Part shown: piece after piece, positions 1-5,923 of the stretch
How positions within the stretch are numbered: position 1 is the first letter of the stretch
Layout of the letters: every line of letters starts with the position of its first letter
Virus record (IMG/VR): IMGVR_UViG_2671180460_000007
Coordinates: 1-5,923 of that record
Source: a virus
Taxonomy: Duplodnaviria > Heunggongvirae > Uroviricota > Caudoviricetes
Strand: one strand, 5' to 3'
Length of the DNA stretch: 5,923 nt
The notes under the pieces: generated by a model
Told to the model about the DNA's origin: nothing
Databases searched by the model: none
What the model saw: only the letters and a program-made list of their open reading frames with translations
Program-made: the position numbers and the translations under genes

Positions 1-156
1 TCTCTGGGGACGATTTACCGACGTTTTTATAACGGACATTTTCTGCCTGTAGACCAGGAAAGCGCACAGGTTCTTTCTACACCAATGCAGCAGCCCCAGC
101 CGCGAAGATACAGTAACAAACGAACTGACAGCAGTAAGATGGAGCGTTTCTTTTGA
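1..156 (+). CDS. 3' end of an upstream ORF (partial, runs off the left edge); hypothetical phage protein
   Basis: Frame 1 is open from base 1 to TGA at 154-156 (ends ...[14 protein letters not shown]); the other two + frames hit stops within the first 52 nt. Its stop overlaps the TTG at 153 of the next ORF. No family recognised. Confidence 0.3.
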   Translation, partial: SLGTIYRRFYNGHFLPVDQESAQVLSTPMQQPQPRRYSNKRTDSSKMERFF

Positions 157-410
157 ACAACCAGACAATGACTTTTACCCCTGAACAATTACGTAAACAG
201 GCACAGGAAATGTTGCGACAAGCGGAACAACTGGAAAAAACAGGTGTAACAAAAGATACCATTCGTCGGGATATGGTTCCCGCGCTCAGAGAATTGATGC
301 AGGCGAAACACCGTGCACAAAAAGCGGTGGATGAGCTGGTGGATTGTGTGGCAGAGCTGGAAACCAAAGTTGGAAAGTTTGAAAAACTGGTGCATGAGGT
401 GCTGCGCTGA
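153..410 (+). CDS. Hypothetical small phage protein (80-85 aa), predicted coiled-coil rich, immediately upstream of Q
   Basis: Track ORF 153..410. Start is ambiguous: TTG at 153 has GGAG 8 nt upstream; the first ATG is at 168 with no clear SD. Protein is rich in E/K/R/Q/L heptad-like stretches ([19 protein letters not shown]...). Stop TGA 408-410 overlaps the ATG of the next gene (TGATG). Confidence 0.55.
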
Positions 411-793
411 TGCGTGATATTCAGATGGTTCTTGAGCGTTGGGGAGCGTGGGTGGCAAATAATCATGAGGATGTTACCTGGTCATCGATTGCAGCCGGAT
501 TCAAGGGGCTTATTCCTTCAAAGGTTAAATCGCGACCGCAATGTTGTGACGATGATGCGATGGTTATTTGTGGTTGCATGGCTCGTCTGAAAAAGAGCAA
601 CAATGACTTGCATGATTTGCTGGTGGATTATTACGTTTGGGGCATGACGTTTATGAGGCTGGCGCAGAAGCATAATTGCTCTGATGGATATATCGGGAAA
701 AGGTTACAGAAAGCAGAGGGAATAATCGAAGGTATGTTAATGGCATTAGACATTTGCTTAGAGATGGATATTGATGTTACTAAGCTTAATTAA
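410..793 (+). CDS. Late-gene antitermination protein Q (phage 82 / DLP12 QuuD-like family)
   Basis: 127-aa ORF starting [14 protein letters not shown] with a Cys cluster ([12 protein letters not shown]) consistent with a zinc-binding Q antiterminator; size and N-terminus match my recollection of the DLP12 QuuD / 82-type Q family. ATG overlaps the upstream stop; stop TAA at 791-793. Confidence 0.8.
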
Positions 794-925
794 TACGATT
801 ATTTTTTAATAAAAAACGGGGCGTAAAAACACCCCCAAGATAAAGGGTAATATATAACAGAAAGTTTAGATAGTAAGAAGCAGGGCTCTAATGCTTCTTA
901 AAGAAGTGGCTTGAGGGAGCCACTT

Positions 926-958
926 ATATGCTGAGAAGATAAAACCTTCTCAGCATAT
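926..958. terminator. Perfect 13-bp stem / 7-nt loop hairpin between the convergent Q and porin genes; probable (bidirectional) terminator
   Basis: atatgctgagaag (926-938), loop ataaaac, cttctcagcatat (946-958) is an exact reverse complement; followed on + strand by cctttatt. Two further hairpins lie just upstream (874-900, 9-bp stem; 904-925, 7-bp stem). Confidence 0.5.
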
Positions 959-973
959 CCTTTATTAACCAGA

Positions 974-2077
974 TTAGAACTGGTATACCATACCTACAGC
1001 AACGATATCGTCAGTGTTTACACCAAGAGCTTTAGTAAAGTCATTTTTGTCAAGCAGGTTGATTTTGTAATCAACGAAGGTAGACATATTTTTGTTGAAA
1101 TAATAAGTTGCGCCAACATCAACATATTTGACTAAATCCTGGTCACCAAAAATGCCAAGATCTTTACCTTTTGATTGCAGATAAGCAACAGACGGACGCA
1201 GACCGAAATCGAACTGATATTGTGCAACAGCTTCGAAGTTTTGTGCTTTATTAGCCACAAAGTAATCTGCGAATTTAGTCATATTCTGGGTTTCTGAATA
1301 GGTTGTTGCCAGATAAACGTTGTTTGCGTCGTATTTCAGACCTGCAGCCCAGACTTCTGCATTTTCGCCGGAAGCAAATACTCCTGGGAGAAGTTTACCC
1401 AATTTGACTTGAGTGTCGGTACGATCAGATTTCGCATACGTTGCACCAATGCCGAAACCTTCGTATTCATAGGTCGCAGAGAAACCAAAACCATCGCCAT
1501 TGCCTTTGGTGTAGTTATCTAAGCTACTACGATCATGATTATTCTTACCCTGGTACTGTGCAGCAAAATTCAGACCATCAACCAGACCAAAGAAGTCGTT
1601 GTTACGATAAGTTGCAACACCAGTGGTACGACCAGTCATGAATACATCTGTTTGGGTCCAGGTATCTCCACCGAATTCTGGCAGGACGTCAGTCCATGCA
1701 CCGATATCGTATGCTACACCGTAGTTACGACCGTAATCGACGGAGCCGTAGTCACCGAATTTAAGCCCTGCAAATGCAAGACGGGTTTTATCTTTGGCTG
1801 CTCCCTGTTCTTCAGTACGGTTTCCTTTGAATTCATATTCCCACTGACCGAAACCAGTCAGTTGATCGTTGATCTGAGTTTCGCCTTTGAAACCCAGACG
1901 AGCATAAGTTGTGTCGCCATCATTTGCATCGTTAGAGGAGAAGTAGTGCTTAGCATTAACTTTTCCGTACAGATCCAACTTGTTGCTGTCTTTATTATAA
2001 ATCTCTGCTGCCTGAGCAGACATCGCCATCAGTACTGATGCAGCCACAGCAGAAATTGCCACCGTTAATTTTTTCAT
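974..2077 (-). CDS. nmpC: General diffusion porin of the OmpC/OmpF family, prophage-borne NmpC / Lc / OmpD type
   Basis: Signal peptide [23 protein letters not shown] followed by [24 protein letters not shown]..., Gly/Tyr/Asp-rich beta-barrel composition and C-terminal ...VGMVYQF aromatic terminus, all hallmarks of enterobacterial 16-strand porins. The track start at 2080 is GTG; the adjacent ATG at 2077 with AGGG about 6 nt upstream is the more likely start. Stop TAA at 974-976 (minus). Confidence 0.9.
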
Positions 2078-2080
2078 CAC

Positions 2081-2584
2081 GAACCCTTTTTTTTGAACTA
2101 TTTTTAAAAAATGATGTCACTGCGCGATAAATATTCATCTAATCAATGTGGTTATTTCAAGAGTCAAGTTTAATTTAGTGATTGATAATATGATCAAGAT
2201 CTCATTTATGCGCGTTGGTATAATTTGTTGATATTTTTGTGTAATGCGGAATTTAATTAATGAAATACATTATTTACTCATTTTTCATTGAAAAATAACA
2301 ATGATGTATTTGATGTAATATGTGTTATTCGTATGTTTTGTTTTGTTATGTTGCATTAACATTTGAGTGGCGTATTTGTGGTTTACGTACGTAAAAATTC
2401 AATTATGATGTTAAGAGTGGTTGCTTCGACTCCTTCCTTAAAACCGCCGTCGGGCTGTTTTTTGTACCCGAAAAACGGCACAGGACGTTAAACGTGCTGG
2501 TGGTTGCGAATACTGGTCTTTCAGCTTGCTGGCTTTTTCGACAAGAGTTATTGGTATGTCACGTTAACCAGAAAGGAAAAAGAC
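2081..2584. promoter_or_regulatory. About 500-bp AT-rich intergenic region upstream of the porin gene and of the divergent small ORF; presumed porin promoter/regulatory region
   Basis: Very AT-rich, ORF-free stretch directly 5' of the minus-strand porin start. Porin genes of this family carry long AT-rich upstream regions with regulator sites (established knowledge); no individual binding site could be pinned by eye. Confidence 0.4.
2216..2224 (+). promoter_or_regulatory. Candidate extended -10 promoter element (TGgTATAAT) on the + strand, divergent from the porin gene
   Basis: ttGGTATAAT at 2215-2224 gives a perfect TATAAT hexamer (2219-2224) with TG at 2216-2217; no good -35, which extended -10 promoters do not need. 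Would transcribe rightwards toward the small ORF at 2585. Confidence 0.25.
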
Positions 2585-2782
2585 ATGCTAAAACAGCAGG
2601 ATATGACCGAAACTGCCAGAGTGGTGTTTAATGAATTAAGCGTCACCGAACCGGCGACCGTCGGGGAAATTGCGCAGAATACTTACCTTTCACGCGAACG
2701 CTGCCAGTTAATACTGACCCAGCTTGTTATGGCGGGTCTGGCAGATTATCAGTTCGGTTGTTACAGACGCCTTCCGCAGTGA
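2585..2782 (+). CDS. Small (65 aa) putative DNA-binding protein, helix-turn-helix / winged-helix-like
   Basis: Track ORF 2504..2782 begins at TTG; the first ATG is at 2585, with AAGGA (2573-2577) 7 nt upstream, which I take as the start. The segment ATVGEIAQNTYLSRERCQLILTQLVMAGL looks like a helix-turn-helix recognition unit. Lies 150 bp upstream of the methyltransferase gene on the same strand. Confidence 0.5.
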   Translation: MLKQQDMTETARVVFNELSVTEPATVGEIAQNTYLSRERCQLILTQLVMAGLADYQFGCYRRLPQ

Positions 2783-2932
2783 AGGCTTTTTAATTTGTGG
2801 TAATGGGCGGCTGGTGGGTGTTAGCGGCACCTGCCAGCCATCTGCTCATGCGTTGGGGTCACAAGCAAACCTCAGGCCCATCTGCTTTGCGCAAAAGCGG
2901 TATGAGCCTATCAGAGAAGTGCTTATTGATCT

Positions 2933-3997
2933 ATGGCTAATACTGTAAAAATATCCAGTTGTGAGTTAATCAACGCTGATTGCCTGGAATTTATCCGGAC
3001 CTTACCGGAAAACTCTGTCGATCTGATAGTCACAGACCCGCCATACTTTAAAGTGAAGCCCGAGGGCTGGGATAACCAGTGGAAGGGGGACGATGATTAC
3101 CTGAAATGGCTGGCTCAGTGTCTGGCGCAGTTCTGGCGGGTACTGAAACCTGCCGGAAGTCTCTACCTGTTCTGTGGTCATCGCCTGGCATCTGATATCG
3201 AAATCATGATGCGTGAACGCTTTAATGTGCTGAACCACATTATCTGGGCGAAGCCGTCCGGACGCTGGAATGGGTGCAACAAGGAAAGCCTGCGGGCGTA
3301 TTTTCCGGCAACAGAACGCATTCTGTTTGCTGAACATTATCAGGGGCCATACCAGCCAAAAAATGACGGCTATGCAACAAAGGGGCGCGAGCTTAAACAG
3401 CATGTCATGGCCCCGCTGATTTCTTACTTTCGTGATGCGCGCGAATCACTGGGGATAACGTCAAAACAGATAGCAGAAGCCACCGGAAAGAAAAACATGG
3501 CTTCGCACTGGTTTGGTACCAGTCAGTGGCAGTTACCGAATGAGGCCGATTACAGTAAACTGCAGGCGCTGTTTGCACGTGTGGCGGCAGAAAAACACCA
3601 GCGCGGTGAACTGGAGCAGCCACACCACCAGCTGGTCAGCACATACAGCGAACTGAACCGGCAATATGTCAGCCTGCTGGAGGAATACAAATCACTGCGG
3701 CGTTATTTTTCCGTATCGGCTGTCGTTCCTTATACGGATGTCTGGACGCACAAGCCCGTGCAGTATTATCCGGGCAAACATCCCTGTGAAAAACCGGCGG
3801 ATATGTTGCGTCAGATAATTACTGCCAGCAGCCGTCCAGGCGATTTGGTCGCAGATTTTTTTATGGGGTCAGGTTCCACGATAAAAGCGGCACTGTTGCT
3901 GGGACGCAGGGCGATTGGCGTGGAACTGGAAAAAGAACGTTTTGAACAGACCGTCGGTGAAATAATGGAGCAGGCAGAGAAACCAGGTAGTGCATAA
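2933..3997 (+). CDS. DNA methyltransferase, beta-class amino-methyltransferase (N6-adenine type most likely; N4-cytosine not excluded); orphan within this window
   Basis: 354-aa ORF with catalytic motif IV DPPY near the N-terminus (DLIVTDPPYF) and AdoMet-binding motif I FxGxG near the C-terminus (DFFMGSGST). This IV-before-I order is the beta-class permutation; DPPY rather than SPPY favours N6-adenine. No endonuclease-like ORF is adjacent. Confidence 0.88.
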   Translation: MANTVKISSCELINADCLEFIRTLPENSVDLIVTDPPYFKVKPEGWDNQWKGDDDYLKWLAQCLAQFWRVLKPAGSLYLFCGHRLASDIEIMMRERFNVLNHIIWAKPSGRWNGCNKESLRAYFPATERILFAEHYQGPYQPKNDGYATKGRELKQHVMAPLISYFRDARESLGITSKQIAEATGKKNMASHWFGTSQWQLPNEADYSKLQALFARVAAEKHQRGELEQPHHQLVSTYSELNRQYVSLLEEYKSLRRYFSVSAVVPYTDVWTHKPVQYYPGKHPCEKPADMLRQIITASSRPGDLVADFFMGSGSTIKAALLLGRRAIGVELEKERFEQTVGEIMEQAEKPGSA

Positions 3998-4280
3998 TAA
4001 GATAAGAACGGAAAACTTATTATCACGCAGAATGCGCGACGCGAACTAGGCAAGGTGACCGTACTGGCAGTTTCATTGCTCATCTGCCAGTTTTTGACAC
4101 AGGTTGTGTACTGGTTGCGAAAGCACGTGGTTGGATGAGTTCTGCGTTCACATACAGGGTGGTGTGAAGCCAGTTTTTTTCTGTGTATTCAGATGGCGTT
4201 CTGATTTTATGACGAGTTACGTGAACATCAGGGTGTTATGAGTTGGGACGTCATCTTAATGCAACATATTTAATTATGTG

Positions 4281-4379
4281 ATGCCTTATCGGGATAAGGC
4301 ATGATTTCTGGTGTTCTTTGCAATGCAGACATCTCATTTATCAGATAATCATGCTTTATCCCGATGATGCATCAGGCAT
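4281..4379. repeat. Long near-perfect inverted repeat (about 28 paired positions, 31-nt central loop) in the non-coding region between methyltransferase and tRNAs
   Basis: Arm A 4288-4306 (atcgggataaggcatgatt) pairs with arm B 4347-4365 (aatcatgctttatcccgat): 18 Watson-Crick pairs plus one G:T. Extended by tctg (4307-4310) with caga (4342-4345) and by atgcc (4281-4285) with ggcat (4375-4379). Each arm also holds a local 10-bp palindrome (atgccttatc gg gataaggcat at 4281-4302; tgatgcatca at 4365-4374). Confidence 0.55.
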
Positions 4380-4416
4380 TGTCTTATGAGGTTTCATTGT
4401 ACTCTTTTATTTGCGG

Positions 4417-4447
4417 CCCACTGGTTTTTTACTGGTGGGTATTTTTT
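4417..4447 (+). terminator. Candidate rho-independent terminator downstream of the methyltransferase gene
   Basis: cccactgg (4417-4424), loop tttttta, ctggtggg (4432-4439): 8-bp stem including two G:U pairs, followed by tattttttgg. Confidence 0.35.
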
Positions 4448-4519
4448 GGCTTTTTGTGAAATGCTGCAGTAAATAAAATTTTTATTCAAACAAATTTACA
4501 ATTGCGCGAGTAATAAATA

Positions 4520-4547
4520 TTGCATCCGGAATATTTATTAGTATTAT
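4520..4547 (+). promoter_or_regulatory. Candidate sigma70 promoter for the tRNA transcription unit
   Basis: TTGCAT (4520-4525), 16-bp spacer, TATTAT (4542-4547); AT-rich UP-like sequence upstream (aaataaaatttttattcaaacaaattt); predicted start about 60 nt upstream of the first tRNA. Confidence 0.35.
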
Positions 4548-4614
4548 TTCTGCGGTTCCGAGGGGATGGTACGATATGTATCGGGGCATCTCATCTCACG
4601 CCCGAGGAACCAAC

Positions 4615-4690
<76 letters not shown>

Positions 4691-4693
4691 TAT

Positions 4694-4768
<75 letters not shown>

Positions 4769-5033
4769 CAGTAACTAAGGCGAGATTGTTTCAGGCACTG
4801 ATGTAATATAATATATGTGGGGTGTTTTTTTCTGACTCCTTACCACGCCCTGTTCTGTAATGAGTGATATCAGTACAGTTCCAGTGCCACTTTTTTACAA
4901 CACCGGAATAATGCATTATTAGCCAGGATTTTGTTTTTTTCTTCTGCAAATGTATTATCCCGATGTTGTAAACATCGACAAAAACAAAACTGTGATTAGT
5001 CACATACTAAGTCAAGCCCGGAAATACATCCTT

Positions 5034-5059
5034 AACCGCCGCACCAGGCGGTTTTTTTT
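5034..5059 (+). terminator. Strong rho-independent terminator closing the tRNA transcription unit
   Basis: aaccgcc (5034-5040), loop gcacca, ggcggtt (5047-5053): perfect 7-bp stem followed by a run of 8 T (5052-5059). Confidence 0.7.
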
Positions 5060-5233
5060 ATTCCGTTTTTTATGGACCGTTCAGTCGGACCTTTTTCATA
5101 TCCGCGTCACGCCCGGCGCACATCAAAAACCACAGAGCCTTTCAGTGGCGAGCTTACGGGATGGTCAGTGTGACTTTCTCTGTGGGCTGGTCACCCCCGG
5201 GCGGAGGCTCACCCACTAAAAGGAAAAGTAACG

Positions 5234-5659
5234 ATGTTTGGTATTTTCAAAAAGAAAACCCGCAAGGCCATTACTGAAGTGAAGAAGATGGAGAACCGCG
5301 ACGCAGTGGAGGCGACCGTCTGGGGCGCGTATTCCATAGCATTCGCCGACGGCACCTGTGATGCGAAAGAAATCGCTGTGCTGGAGAAAACCATTGCAGC
5401 ACTTCCTGCTTTTGCGCCGTTCTCGGGTGAGATTGCACAAATGAGTGCAAATATCCGCGCCCGTTATGAAGCGTCACCTCGTAGTGCGAATGCTCAGGCT
5501 TTGCGTGAACTGGCTGATGTGGCAGGAACCACCGAAGCGGTTGATGTGCTGTGCCTGTGTCTTGATATTGCTGACCAGGATGGCATTGGTCCGGATGAAG
5601 AAGCACAGCTCAAGAAAATTGCTCAGGCGCTGCAGTTGCCGCTGGAGCAGTACCTGTGA
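5234..5659 (+). CDS. TerB-fold (tellurite-resistance TerB-like) small soluble protein, 141 aa
   Basis: Good SD (AAGGAAAAG) 8 nt before ATG. Two copies of the TerB-type signature: AFADGTCDAKEIAVLEKTIAAL and LDIADQDGIGPDEEAQLKKIAQAL (acidic ADG/DQDG motif followed by E and an amphipathic helix). No predicted transmembrane segment. Confidence 0.75.
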   Translation: MFGIFKKKTRKAITEVKKMENRDAVEATVWGAYSIAFADGTCDAKEIAVLEKTIAALPAFAPFSGEIAQMSANIRARYEASPRSANAQALRELADVAGTTEAVDVLCLCLDIADQDGIGPDEEAQLKKIAQALQLPLEQYL

Positions 5660-5805
5660 AAAGTGCGCGCCTTGTGCTGGCTGCCATCCTGCTGTTTCTG
5701 GTGGTGGTGGATTTCACCGGACGGCTGATGTCGGTGCTGGCAGATGGTGTGCTGGTGGCGATGGCGCTGGTCGTGCTCCGGCCTTTACTGCGTAAATCTG
5801 AATAG
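5656..5805 (+). CDS. Small hydrophobic ORF (49 aa, two predicted membrane-spanning segments), translationally coupled to the TerB-like gene; not in the supplied ORF track
   Basis: GTG at 5656 overlaps the TerB-like stop (cTGTGAaa; GTG 5656-5658, TGA 5657-5659); GGAG at 5644-5647 lies 8 nt upstream. Translation VKSARLVLAAILLFLVVVDFTGRLMSVLADGVLVAMALVVLRPLLRKSE*: basic N-terminus, two hydrophobic stretches, basic C-terminus. Stop TAG at 5803-5805. In this frame the nearest upstream stop is 5596-5598 and GTG 5656 is the first plausible start. Confidence 0.4.
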   Translation: MKSARLVLAAILLFLVVVDFTGRLMSVLADGVLVAMALVVLRPLLRKSE

Positions 5806-5855
5806 CACCACACAAAAGGTATCTGCGGGTGCCTTTGACGGGGTGTTTTTTTACG

Positions 5856-5876
5856 GGCCGACAGTGGCCTTTTTTT
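5856..5876 (+). terminator. Weak terminator-like hairpin plus T-run after the small hydrophobic ORF
   Basis: ggcc (5856-5859), loop gacagt, ggcc (5866-5869), followed by tttttttattt. The stem is only 4-5 bp, so this would be leaky at best. Confidence 0.25.
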
Positions 5877-5894
5877 ATTTACAGGAGAAAAAGT

Positions 5895-5923
5895 ATGTCT
5901 GAACCCTTATCCGGTTCCGGCAC
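5895..5923 (+). CDS. 5' end of a downstream gene (partial, runs off the right edge); product unknown
   Basis: ATG at 5895 preceded by a strong SD (AGGAG at 5883-5887, 7-nt spacing); reads MSEPLSGSG... to the window end. Not recognisable as a lambda- or 21-type holin or endolysin N-terminus. Confidence 0.4.

Follow-up and report, generated by a model that had tools for sequence, protein, structure and literature searches.

An intact NmpC/Lc-type porin gene as a probable accessory cassette between the Q gene and the late promoter of a lambdoid prophage

Organization of the locus

The window analysed here is the whole stretch of 5,923 nucleotides at positions 1 to 5,923 of the IMG/VR virus record IMGVR_UViG_2671180460_000007 (Caudoviricetes). 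A porin gene and a Q antiterminator gene face each other in its first half and are followed by the start of the putative late operon. The features of this region are as follows.

410–793, + strand: Q antiterminator gene, 127 aa, Q21/933W family (full PF06530 model, E 1.1e-53)
808–835, − strand: predicted intrinsic terminator of the porin transcript, stem 818–835 and U run 808–817 (terminator scan, fold)
874–958, − strand: three conserved hairpins of the porin 3′ UTR, 874–900, 904–925 and 926–958 (folding z-score −7.1)
974–2077, − strand: porin coding sequence, 367 aa plus stop, probable start ATG 2077
2078–2204, − strand: conserved region of the predicted porin promoter and 5′ UTR (80–83% identity to DLP12-type alleles)
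2095–2121, + strand: sigmaE-like motif GAACTA-N16-TCACT, read from the sequence, at the counterpart of the DLP12 essD promoter position (+1 near 2127)
2131–2160, − strand: candidate porin promoter hexamers TTGAAA-N18-GAATAT, placed with the guidance of conservation
2189–2204, − strand: candidate CRP-like site
2205–2375, no strand: very AT-rich spacer, not conserved, that separates the predicted porin and late promoters (GC 0.26, about 46% identity)
2382–2463, + strand: putative late promoter pR′ and Q-loading site (promoter scan match, conservation)
2382–2395, + strand: 14-bp palindrome TTTACGTACGTAAA, candidate Q-binding element, containing a −35-like TTTACG
2404–2409, + strand: putative late −10, TATGAT
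2410–2428, + strand: conserved initial transcribed region of the late block
2440–2463, + strand: weak terminator hairpin and T run of the late block
2585–2782, + strand: ORF of 65 aa, the first in the leader of the late operon (phiP27 homologue L23, a "TrmB family transcriptional regulator" in RefSeq)
2769–2786: terminator-like hairpin after the 65-aa ORF
2933–3997: DNA methyltransferase gene

The nearest relatives of the window are E. coli EC11 (97% identity over 1–3965) and IMG/VR contig L006 (99% over 1–3517).

The porin gene and its product

The gene lies in an uninterrupted ORF on the − strand (974–2080 in the list of open reading frames). ATG 2077 is most likely the true start: an AAGGG ribosome-binding site is located 6–10 nt 5′ of it (2084–2088) and RefSeq starts the identical gene of EC11 at its counterpart. 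GTG 2080, one codon upstream, was rejected because it is too close to the ribosome-binding site, and the ORFs on the + strand within the gene (e.g. 1535–2038) were set aside as antisense shadows of a strongly conserved coding sequence.

The protein matches the whole Pfam Porin_1 model (PF00267, positions 1–337 of 337, E 8e-152) and scores 530 bits against the NCBIfam OmpC subfamily (cut-off 484). Mature chains of solved porins align with it from residue 24 (AEIYNKD...) through the final YQF, which places the signal peptide at residues 1–23 with cleavage after AQA. The PEFGGD constriction-loop motif is present, residues 132–139 being invariant, and the matches to solved OmpC/OmpK36 chains (E 1e-137) suggest that the product is a sixteen-strand β-barrel trimer forming a diffusion channel. 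The C-terminal Phe is intact and there is no IS element in the gene, unlike the K-12/434B copy, in which IS5 is inserted after codon 346. An earlier sequence-only reading of this DNA had described an intact general porin, free of IS interruption and convergent with Q, and in these respects the full-length profile match, the signal peptide, the C-terminal residue and the gene order agree with it.

BLASTP and MAFFT comparisons gave 93–94% identity to the clusters named NmpC and Lc, and about 80% (77–80% by the two methods) to the representative of the Salmonella OmpD cluster. The description as a prophage-borne porin can accordingly be refined: at 93–94% identity, clearly more than to OmpD and OmpC, the protein belongs to the NmpC/Lc clade. 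An identical protein is encoded by EC11, where it is annotated "porin OmpC", and by five IMG/VR contigs (L006–L009 and L011). Compared with four other alleles, dN/dS is 0.06–0.09 at a dS of 0.5–0.8 and the gene is under strong purifying selection. The amino acid changes between alleles are clustered (residues 88–94, 180–191, 225–238, 268–274, 309–310 and 342–363).

A porin gene on the opposite strand between Q and the late/lysis genes also occurs in 434B/DLP12 and in about 120 IMG/VR loci of the same Q type. NmpC of DLP12, a defective prophage of E. coli K-12, is 94% identical to the window porin and is intact in strain NCM3722. Its gene occupies the same place, flanked by quuD (the Q gene) on one side and the late/lysis genes on the other, in the same orientation, with the same four-hairpin 3′ region and a late-promoter block that carries an identical palindrome. 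The two loci differ in other ways. Synonymous divergence is high (dS 0.54), the promoter-proximal 120 bp are 80–83% identical whereas the distal AT-rich spacers are unrelated, and the terminator behind the late promoter is weaker in the window. Moreover, essD lies directly downstream in DLP12, while the window has the small ORF, the methyltransferase gene, tRNA genes and a TerB-like gene instead.

Proteins labelled "outer membrane porin protein LC", after the Lc (protein 2) of lambdoid phage PA-2, are 93% (BLASTP) or 94% (MAFFT) identical over the full length. Lc is the classical case of lysogenic conversion by a porin: lc maps close to Q and the lysis genes, and its product, made in lysogens, reduces the level of OmpC, which serves PA-2 as receptor. 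This receptor-exclusion logic is not transferable to the phage of the window. OmpD of Salmonella enterica and OmpC/OmpK36 of enterobacteria belong to the same fold family, and solved OmpC, OmpK36 and Omp36 align over the full length, PEFGGD motif and terminal YQF included; residues that differ from the window porin sit in short clusters. However, these are chromosomal core genes whereas the window porin is prophage cargo. Our literature search returned nothing relevant on PA-2/Lc or on prophage-encoded porins as a general topic. Knowledge of NmpC/Lc-type prophage porins, of their site beside Q and of their regulation dates back to the 1980s; as far as the porin is concerned the finding is an ordinary one and changes little.

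The regions flanking the porin gene

The convergent Q and porin genes are separated by 180 bp, in which their predicted 3′ ends overlap. The stem at 818–835 would act only on − strand RNA, since its G–U pairs become A–C mismatches on the + strand. Eight base pairs of the 3′ hairpins are preserved by two-sided changes among six alleles. Read on the + strand, the hairpin at 926–958 is followed by a T-rich tail (959–968) and was flagged as terminator-like by the terminator scan; it may stop transcripts arriving from Q. No known small RNA was found by Rfam at E ≤ 1 in the porin 3′ region or in the late leader, the matches being two tRNAs and chance matches to microRNA models.

Upstream of the porin, the GC content at 2078–2380 is 0.27, below that of every other 300-bp stretch in the window; it rises to 0.42 at 2381–2470 and to 0.51 in the next ORF. 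The sequence-only reading had proposed an AT-rich control region of 500 bp. Very AT-rich DNA is indeed present but extends over only about 300 bp (2078–2380), and the last ~200 bp of the proposed region (2381–2584) appear to be the promoter and leader of the late operon. The upstream DNA is a mosaic: 2078–2200 is 80–83% identical to the DLP12-type nmpC promoter region, 2201–2375 is essentially unalignable with other alleles (about 46% identity) and conservation returns at 2376–2420 (82–87%).

The similarity over 2078–2200 points to a porin promoter homologous to PnmpC of DLP12. In a study of PnmpC in K-12, deletion of −199 to −1 abolishes activity, CRP activates, OmpR, IHF and MprA repress, and RyhB acts post-transcriptionally on nmpC (PMC11677980). 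The binding of regulators upstream of the gene, which had also been suggested, agrees with that study, but there the sites are confined to the roughly 200 bp next to the start codon and do not extend over 500. A consensus promoter scan of 700–3000 returned two sites only, fewer than in shuffled sequences, and none for the porin, so that the hexamers listed above are a guess guided by conservation. Scans for the H-NS nucleation motif and the CRP consensus were at or below chance (6 matches against 7.4 expected and 24 against 26, respectively).

Expression in the lysogen

Close homologues have a promoter of their own and are expressed in lysogens. NmpC of prophage Perceval in strain LF82 is expressed 10-fold over background (PMC9928086), and in E. 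coli NCM3722 intact NmpC amounts to about 2% of the proteome and is the main porin under carbon limitation (PMC8144880); a further source on the expression and regulation of NmpC homologues is PMC12890032. By analogy, a lysogen carrying the window prophage would make the porin as a trimeric outer-membrane channel, most strongly when carbon is limiting and at 37 °C. By partly replacing OmpC and OmpF, the porin would alter permeability as well as the set of receptors available to other phages.

We consider it very improbable that the porin is instead a silent passenger, kept off by nucleoid proteins bound to AT-rich DNA and contributing nothing to the lysogen. The low upstream GC content would fit such a state, as would a CGATAAAT core at 2124–2133 that resembles the H-NS nucleation motif and the fact that the K-12 gene is dispensable and disrupted by IS5. 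Yet matches to that motif are at chance level and the homologues are abundantly expressed. In addition, the low dN/dS has been maintained over deep synonymous divergence and the identical protein recurs in several independent genomes.

A conserved, putative late-promoter block beyond the porin

By definition, the canonical Q cassette has pR′, a pause element and a terminator behind Q (bioRxiv 10.1101/651190). In phage 21, whose Q belongs to the same Pfam family as the window Q, a −35 is followed by a spacer that contains the Q-binding element, then by a −10, a transcribed region and a terminator, and the putative elements of the window block at 2382–2463 come in the same order. There are three differences. 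The phage 21 pR′ starts 7 nt after Q, whereas the putative window promoter is displaced by 1.6 kb; the phage 21 Q-binding element consists of two directly repeated 8-bp subsites, whereas the window candidate is a palindrome; and Q21, which is structurally characterised, has 162 aa and is too divergent from the window Q of 127 aa for detection by tblastn at E 1e-8. QuuD of DLP12, in the copy found in 434B, is 89% identical to the window Q.

The motif nAnnnT-GTTAAGAGTGGTTACTTCG...terminator is common to all the short-Q phages examined, at 0.04–2.9 kb downstream of Q. In five loci the block begins 59–68 nt past the Q stop, the same layout as that annotated for phage 21 pR′. In the cargo-free locus L098, Q and the late block are accompanied by the small ORF and methylase of the window, and the porin cassette is absent. 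By contrast, the DNA immediately 3′ of Q is unrelated between short-Q phages with different cargo, and cargo between Q and the late block varies even within one Q subtype. Phages with a Q of 250 aa share only the terminator and the DNA beyond it with the short-Q block. In the window about 1.6 kb separate the Q stop from the predicted late promoter (1,619 nt when counted up to the conserved transcribed stretch), which directly adjoins Q only in cargo-free relatives.

The palindrome between −35 and −10 agrees with the Q subtype in all 182 loci that have a Q gene (182/182). It reads GCGGTCCGC in the cdtI type and GCGTACGC in the Stx2a_1447 type, while phiP27, whose Q is 48% identical to that of the window, has GGAATTCC. 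This subtype-specific palindrome occupies the place of the phage 21 Q-binding element and is therefore a candidate for the same role, although its co-variation with Q could result in part from physical linkage. The −35 hexamers of the block are weak, as is the terminator in the window lineage (−13.9 kcal/mol, z −0.7), which is weaker than that of phiP27. No convincing −10-like pause element was seen downstream of the predicted late start. We found no paper that includes the conserved transcribed sequence, nor one on essD, quuD and promoter together.

Behind the block, the same small ORF and methylase occur in L098, phiP27 and Stx2 phages. PhiP27 (Stx2e) and related Stx2 phages share with the window the Q family, the late block, these two genes and the placement of tRNA genes before the cargo and lysis region. 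In phiP27, however, a forward GIY-YIG nuclease gene is found at the place of the window porin and stx2e at that of the TerB-like gene.

Direction of late transcription

Because the block is conserved, abuts Q where cargo is absent and carries a palindrome that matches Q, we interpret the porin as a 1.6-kb insert between Q and the late promoter. A phiP27-like lambdoid prophage would carry it as a self-contained accessory cassette (about 794–2375). The cassette would have a sigma-70 promoter of its own, no more than about 200 bp away from the start codon, and its leftward transcript would end in the structured 3′ UTR and the intrinsic terminator just before Q. The late promoter (2382–2416, terminator near 2440–2463) would lie past the porin start, on the far side of the cassette, and would fire rightward, away from the porin, so that late transcription enters the small ORF, the methyltransferase gene, the two tRNA genes and the lysis genes. 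With the late promoter beyond the cassette, late transcription would therefore diverge from the porin without crossing it. The porin thus most likely lies upstream of the late promoter and not inside the late operon, and we regard the combination of an intact NmpC/Lc allele with its own promoter between Q and a diverging late promoter as probable.

This is at odds with the sequence-only reading, which had placed the porin antisense to late transcription. That model requires a pR′ directly after Q, from which Q-modified polymerase would cross the porin after induction and shut it off. It follows the textbook cassette and the annotated phage 21 arrangement, and the hairpins at 818–958 would be ignored by Q-modified polymerase. 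But the promoter scan found no promoter-like site on the + strand at 794–973, where the sole match is on the − strand; this DNA is not common to short-Q phages with other cargo, whereas the block that adjoins Q in cargo-free loci and matches the Q subtype is the one at 2382–2463. Furthermore, the fragment used to drive a lux reporter from the DLP12 lysis-operon promoter extends from about codons 18–24 of nmpC to essD (PMC7918800) and lies past nmpC. We find a pR′ beside Q in the window scarcely credible, and since the porin would be outside the late operon, experiments built on antisense late transcription would be misdirected.

The DLP12 literature numbers the essD promoter from the position of the sigmaE-like motif, not from the conserved block. 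Rueggeberg et al. are said to have described, in 2013 and 2015, a dependence of this promoter on both Q and RpoE. When the primers of the "−121 to +650" fragment (PMC7918800) are mapped on locus L001, +1 falls near L001 position 5921, an approximate value as the reverse primer maps only with mismatches, and corresponds to about 2127 in the window. It coincides with GAACTA-N16-TCACT, which the window also has at 2095–2121. Were this element the functional late promoter and the conserved block only leader and terminator, late transcripts would again run away from the porin gene, although from a promoter that overlaps the porin promoter and competes with it. Since the reporter fragment includes the conserved block as well, it fits both candidates alike. 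Allele L012 has an altered version of the motif. Being part of the porin cassette, the motif is also missing from short-Q phages with other or no cargo, which still need a Q-dependent late promoter. This makes the sigmaE-like element an improbable late promoter.

With late transcription diverging from the porin, antisense transcription of the gene could come only from early read-through past Q. Transcripts that start at the early rightward promoter and make Q would run past 793 into the porin after induction, as the convergent arrangement and the overlapping 3′ ends (818–835 and 926–968) would permit. N-modified early transcription is terminator-resistant in lambda, which would favour such read-through. 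In its way, on the other hand, stands a 15-bp + strand hairpin whose T-rich tail ends close to the porin stop codon (926–968); the hairpin is conserved with compensatory changes and has the tail CTTTTT in DLP12. Opposition from early rather than late transcription is possible but unlikely. A reporter fusion of the whole of 2081–2584 would mix at least two, and possibly three, promoters in opposite directions.

The Q/late-promoter junction as a site for cargo

The junction between Q and the late promoter is a by-product of this analysis of more interest than the porin itself. Where a lambdoid phage has a short Q (113–131 aa) of the Q21/933W family, this junction may be a dedicated insertion hotspot for cargo expressed in the lysogen, a proposal for and against which we see the chances as balanced. 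Cargo there is reverse-oriented in 29 of 31 cargo types. The subtype-specific palindromes would guide Q to its displaced promoter, and convergent cargo terminators would shield the late promoter from early read-through; the porin itself may then be an interchangeable payload of a defence or accessory slot, with no special regulatory arrangement. A role of the site as a defence hotspot is only partly documented, because PADLOC gave a strong match for two of ten cargo proteins, a marginal one for a third (NYN/HEC-09, E about 5e-4) and none for the other seven.

If confirmed, the junction would be a predictable target when E. coli prophages are searched for new anti-phage genes, and the palindromes would constitute a simple sequence code for which Q serves which late promoter. 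Such a code would be relevant to Stx phages, which have the same backbone.

The cargo observed at this position is varied. Besides the NmpC/Lc porin it includes a Kiwa-like pair, a PDC-S20 KAP NTPase, an OLD-like ATPase with a cytosine methylase, pairs of NA37 with a membrane protein and several unknown two-gene sets.

Organisation of the region

The 5.9-kb window comes from a phiP27-type lambdoid prophage and has the following features:

Left edge, ahead of the small ORF: replicative helicase gene, 3′ end only
153-410: 85-aa ORF, no family match, ending in ATGA
410-793 (+): Q antiterminator gene (PF06530, E 1e-53)
974-2077 (-, opposite to Q): porin gene
Between the porin and the 65-aa ORF: AT-rich spacer
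2382-2463 (+): block consisting of TTTACG within the palindrome TTTACGTACGTAAA, a 16-nt spacer, TATGAT, then GTTAAGAGTGGTTGCTTCG and a hairpin with a T run
2585-2782: 65-aa ORF, right of the AT-rich spacer
2933-3997: N6/N4 DNA methyltransferase gene
4615-4768: tRNA-Thr (TGT) and tRNA-Gly (TCC), in the late leader
5234-5659: TerB-like gene (PF05099, E 1e-6)

The nearest complete genome is that of E. coli EC11 (97% across 1-3965), whose counterpart lies in a prophage, with holins, an endolysin and terminase after it. The phiP27 backbone is the same, but there a GIY-YIG nuclease gene replaces the porin, and stx2e, just ahead of the holin genes, replaces the TerB-like gene. In EC11 and phiP27, too, the 85-aa ORF stands ahead of Q. 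The overlap of its stop codon with the start codon of Q (410-413) suggests translational coupling of the two genes.

An intact porin of the NmpC/Lc type

The porin ORF is uninterrupted, covers the entire Porin_1 model (E 8e-152) and scores above the NCBIfam OmpC-subfamily cut-off and below the PhoE and OmpF equivalog cut-offs. Its most likely start is ATG 2077, with AAGGG 6-10 nt ahead; the start given by ORF prediction, GTG 2080, lies one codon upstream. Solved OmpC, OmpK36 and Omp36 chains align with the protein from residue 24 through the final residue, which places signal-peptide cleavage between AQA and AEIYNKD, and the alignment shows a PEFGGD loop motif and a terminal YQF. In the K-12/434B copy (434B shares the IS5-split nmpC of the defective prophage DLP12) IS5 splits the gene after codon 346, in contrast to the window copy, which has no IS5. 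The sequence-only reading of an intact, prophage-encoded porin convergent with Q is thus borne out. Clade placement, which it had proposed, is also clear: a search of 5.8 billion proteins gives NmpC and Lc as the nearest relatives with a name (93-94% identity), above a Salmonella OmpD representative (77-80%). Lc of phage PA-2 reduces OmpC, the receptor of PA-2.

EC11 and several IMG/VR contigs encode a 100% identical protein. Compared with four other alleles, dS is 0.5-0.8, dN 0.03-0.07 and dN/dS 0.06-0.09, so that the gene is functional and old rather than a decaying remnant. Replacements cluster at residues 88-94, 180-191, 225-238, 268-274, 309-310 and 342-363.

Given its homology and published data on close relatives, the porin is expected to be expressed in the lysogen. 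In LF82, NmpC of prophage Perceval reaches 10-fold over background (PMC9928086); intact NmpC amounts to ~2% of the NCM3722 proteome, is the main porin at carbon limitation and trades off with OmpC (PMC8144880); and the CFT073 nmpC genes are induced at 37 C (PMC12890032). To call it a prophage porin with the capacity for lysogenic conversion was right; such porins are already known and the finding is ordinary. More attention is merited by the palindromes matched to Q and by the accessory slot that separates Q from pR′.

The late promoter probably lies beyond the porin

The porin had also been read as antisense to late transcription. This reading finds no support: a conserved block at 2382-2463 lies past the porin and points away from it. 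The block is found directly upstream of essD in DLP12/434B; in phiP27, cdtI, PhiR40_1 and Stx2a phages it precedes the small ORF and methylase. Each of these has a Q of 113-127 aa from one family. SfV and mEp460, with an unrelated 250-aa Q, differ: they have only the terminator and downstream part in common with the block, and their own promoter-like sequence directly after Q. The DNA just 3′ of Q is unrelated between the phages with short Q proteins. Searching viral contigs with the conserved transcribed stretch yielded at least 120 further stretches, and the adjoining hexamer is nAnnnT in all 199 loci. In five loci the block starts 59-68 nt past the Q stop, a layout like that of the annotated pR′ of phage 21. 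In the clearest case, L098, Q, the block and the window's small ORF and methylase follow one another without anything intervening; the window has this layout plus a 1.6-kb porin cassette.

These comparisons make it very probable that the block is pR′ with a Q-loading site, which would place the porin upstream of, and diverging from, the late operon. Late transcription would begin beyond the porin coding sequence and head away from it.

A second rightward promoter is a candidate. The cloned DLP12 lysis-operon promoter of PMC7918800, which refers to Rueggeberg 2015, spans '-121 to +650'; the primers map to nmpC codons ~18-24 and to essD, so placing the +1 ~49 nt from the nmpC ATG, directed away from nmpC. 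A sigmaE-like GAACTA-N16-TCACT lies at this mapped +1 and recurs in the window at 2095-2121. As part of the porin cassette, this element is missing in phages without the porin, which excludes it as the general Q-dependent promoter; the reporter fragment includes both it and the block. Whether transcription starts at the block or at the sigmaE-like element, late transcription leaves the porin; early read-through from Q is the only route by which antisense RNA over the porin might arise.

The terminator at 2440-2463 is degraded in the window lineage (AAAACCGCCGTCGGGC--TGTTTTTT versus the consensus AAACCCGCCGnnnnGCGGGTTTTTT). Its folding energy is -13.9 kcal/mol (z -0.7), compared with -24 (z -3.1) in phiP27, so that more transcription may pass into the small ORF, the methylase and the tRNAs without Q.

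Palindromes matched to Q and a variable cargo slot

In each of the 182 loci with a Q gene, the palindrome found between the -35 and -10 positions agreed with the Q subtype; cargo lying between Q and the block, in contrast, varies inside one Q subtype. The palindrome occupies the place of the Q-binding element of phage 21, which is instead a direct repeat. Lying at the same position in 199 loci (2382-2395 in the window), it is a candidate Q-binding element.

Palindromes by type
Window/DLP12 (window 2382-2395): TACGTACGTA
PhiR40_1: TACAATCGTA
cdtI: GCGGTCCGC
Stx2a_1447: GCGTACGC
phiP27: GGAATTCC
phiP27-like (59% identical): TGTTATAACA

The slot from Q to the block (window 794-2375; comparison loci L003, L004, L088, L089, L093-L207) measures 0-2.9 kb with a GC of 0.31-0.46. 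It holds one to three genes in low-GC DNA, and 29 of the 31 cargo types are reverse-oriented. Several cargo proteins, including pairs, had no match.

Identified slot cargo by comparison locus
L099: KwaB-like protein and membrane partner
L164: PDC-S20 KAP NTPase
L201: OLD-like ATPase and C5 cytosine methylase
L093: NYN-domain protein
L096, L174: NA37-family proteins and membrane partners
L089: DUF6731

This company is consistent with, but no proof of, a porin that protects the lysogen or benefits it.

Flanks of the porin gene

A 500-bp AT-rich control region had been proposed upstream of the porin. The AT-rich DNA is real, but only 2078-2380 has a GC of 0.27 (the window's lowest 300-bp stretch), rising to 0.42-0.51 from 2381 onward. 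Next to the gene, other porin alleles match (80-83%) only over the first ~120 bp (2078-2200); 2201-2375 is unalignable and conservation resumes at 2376-2420. Alignment thus reveals a mosaic, not a single control region. In K-12, PnmpC is a sigma-70 promoter no more than 199 bp from the start codon, activated by CRP via two sites and repressed by OmpR, IHF and MprA, and RyhB targets the nmpC mRNA (PMC11677980). Candidate porin promoter hexamers, TTGAAA-N18-GAATAT, lie at 2131-2160 and a candidate CRP-like site, its position kept in DLP12, at 2189-2204; motif scans gave chance-level results. The leftward candidate would start near 2125 and the sigmaE-like rightward motif near 2127. With overlapping DNA (2095-2160) and back-to-back starts, both promoters, if real, should compete.

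On the other side, the 180 bp from the Q stop to the porin stop contain four hairpins (folding z = -7), and eight base pairs are preserved by two-sided changes among six alleles compared. Only on the porin strand does a U run follow the Q-proximal hairpin (818-835), whose G-U pairs become mismatches on the opposite strand; these features identify it as the porin terminator. The porin-proximal hairpin (926-958; 15 bp) is followed on the Q strand by a T-rich tail, which reads CTTTTT in DLP12, and may stop transcripts leaving Q. With a stop signal for each convergent gene, the predicted 3′ ends overlap by ~150 nt (808-968), in a highly structured and conserved segment, and the two RNAs could pair there when both are made after induction.

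The late leader

Two inverted repeats with the common core TTATCCCGAT flank the tRNA pair in non-coding DNA (4279-4374 and 4894-4972; arms of 28 nt, 89% complementary, and 24 nt, 88% complementary); the second gave only chance-level matches to a microRNA model on both strands. In the place of this tRNA pair, ileZ/argN/argO are found in phiP27 and Stx2 phages, and tRNA-Asn and tRNA-Thr in phage 21. Further on, the TerB-like protein and a small hydrophobic ORF (DUF3927 in the EC11 annotation) occupy the stx2e position of phiP27 (5234-5805).
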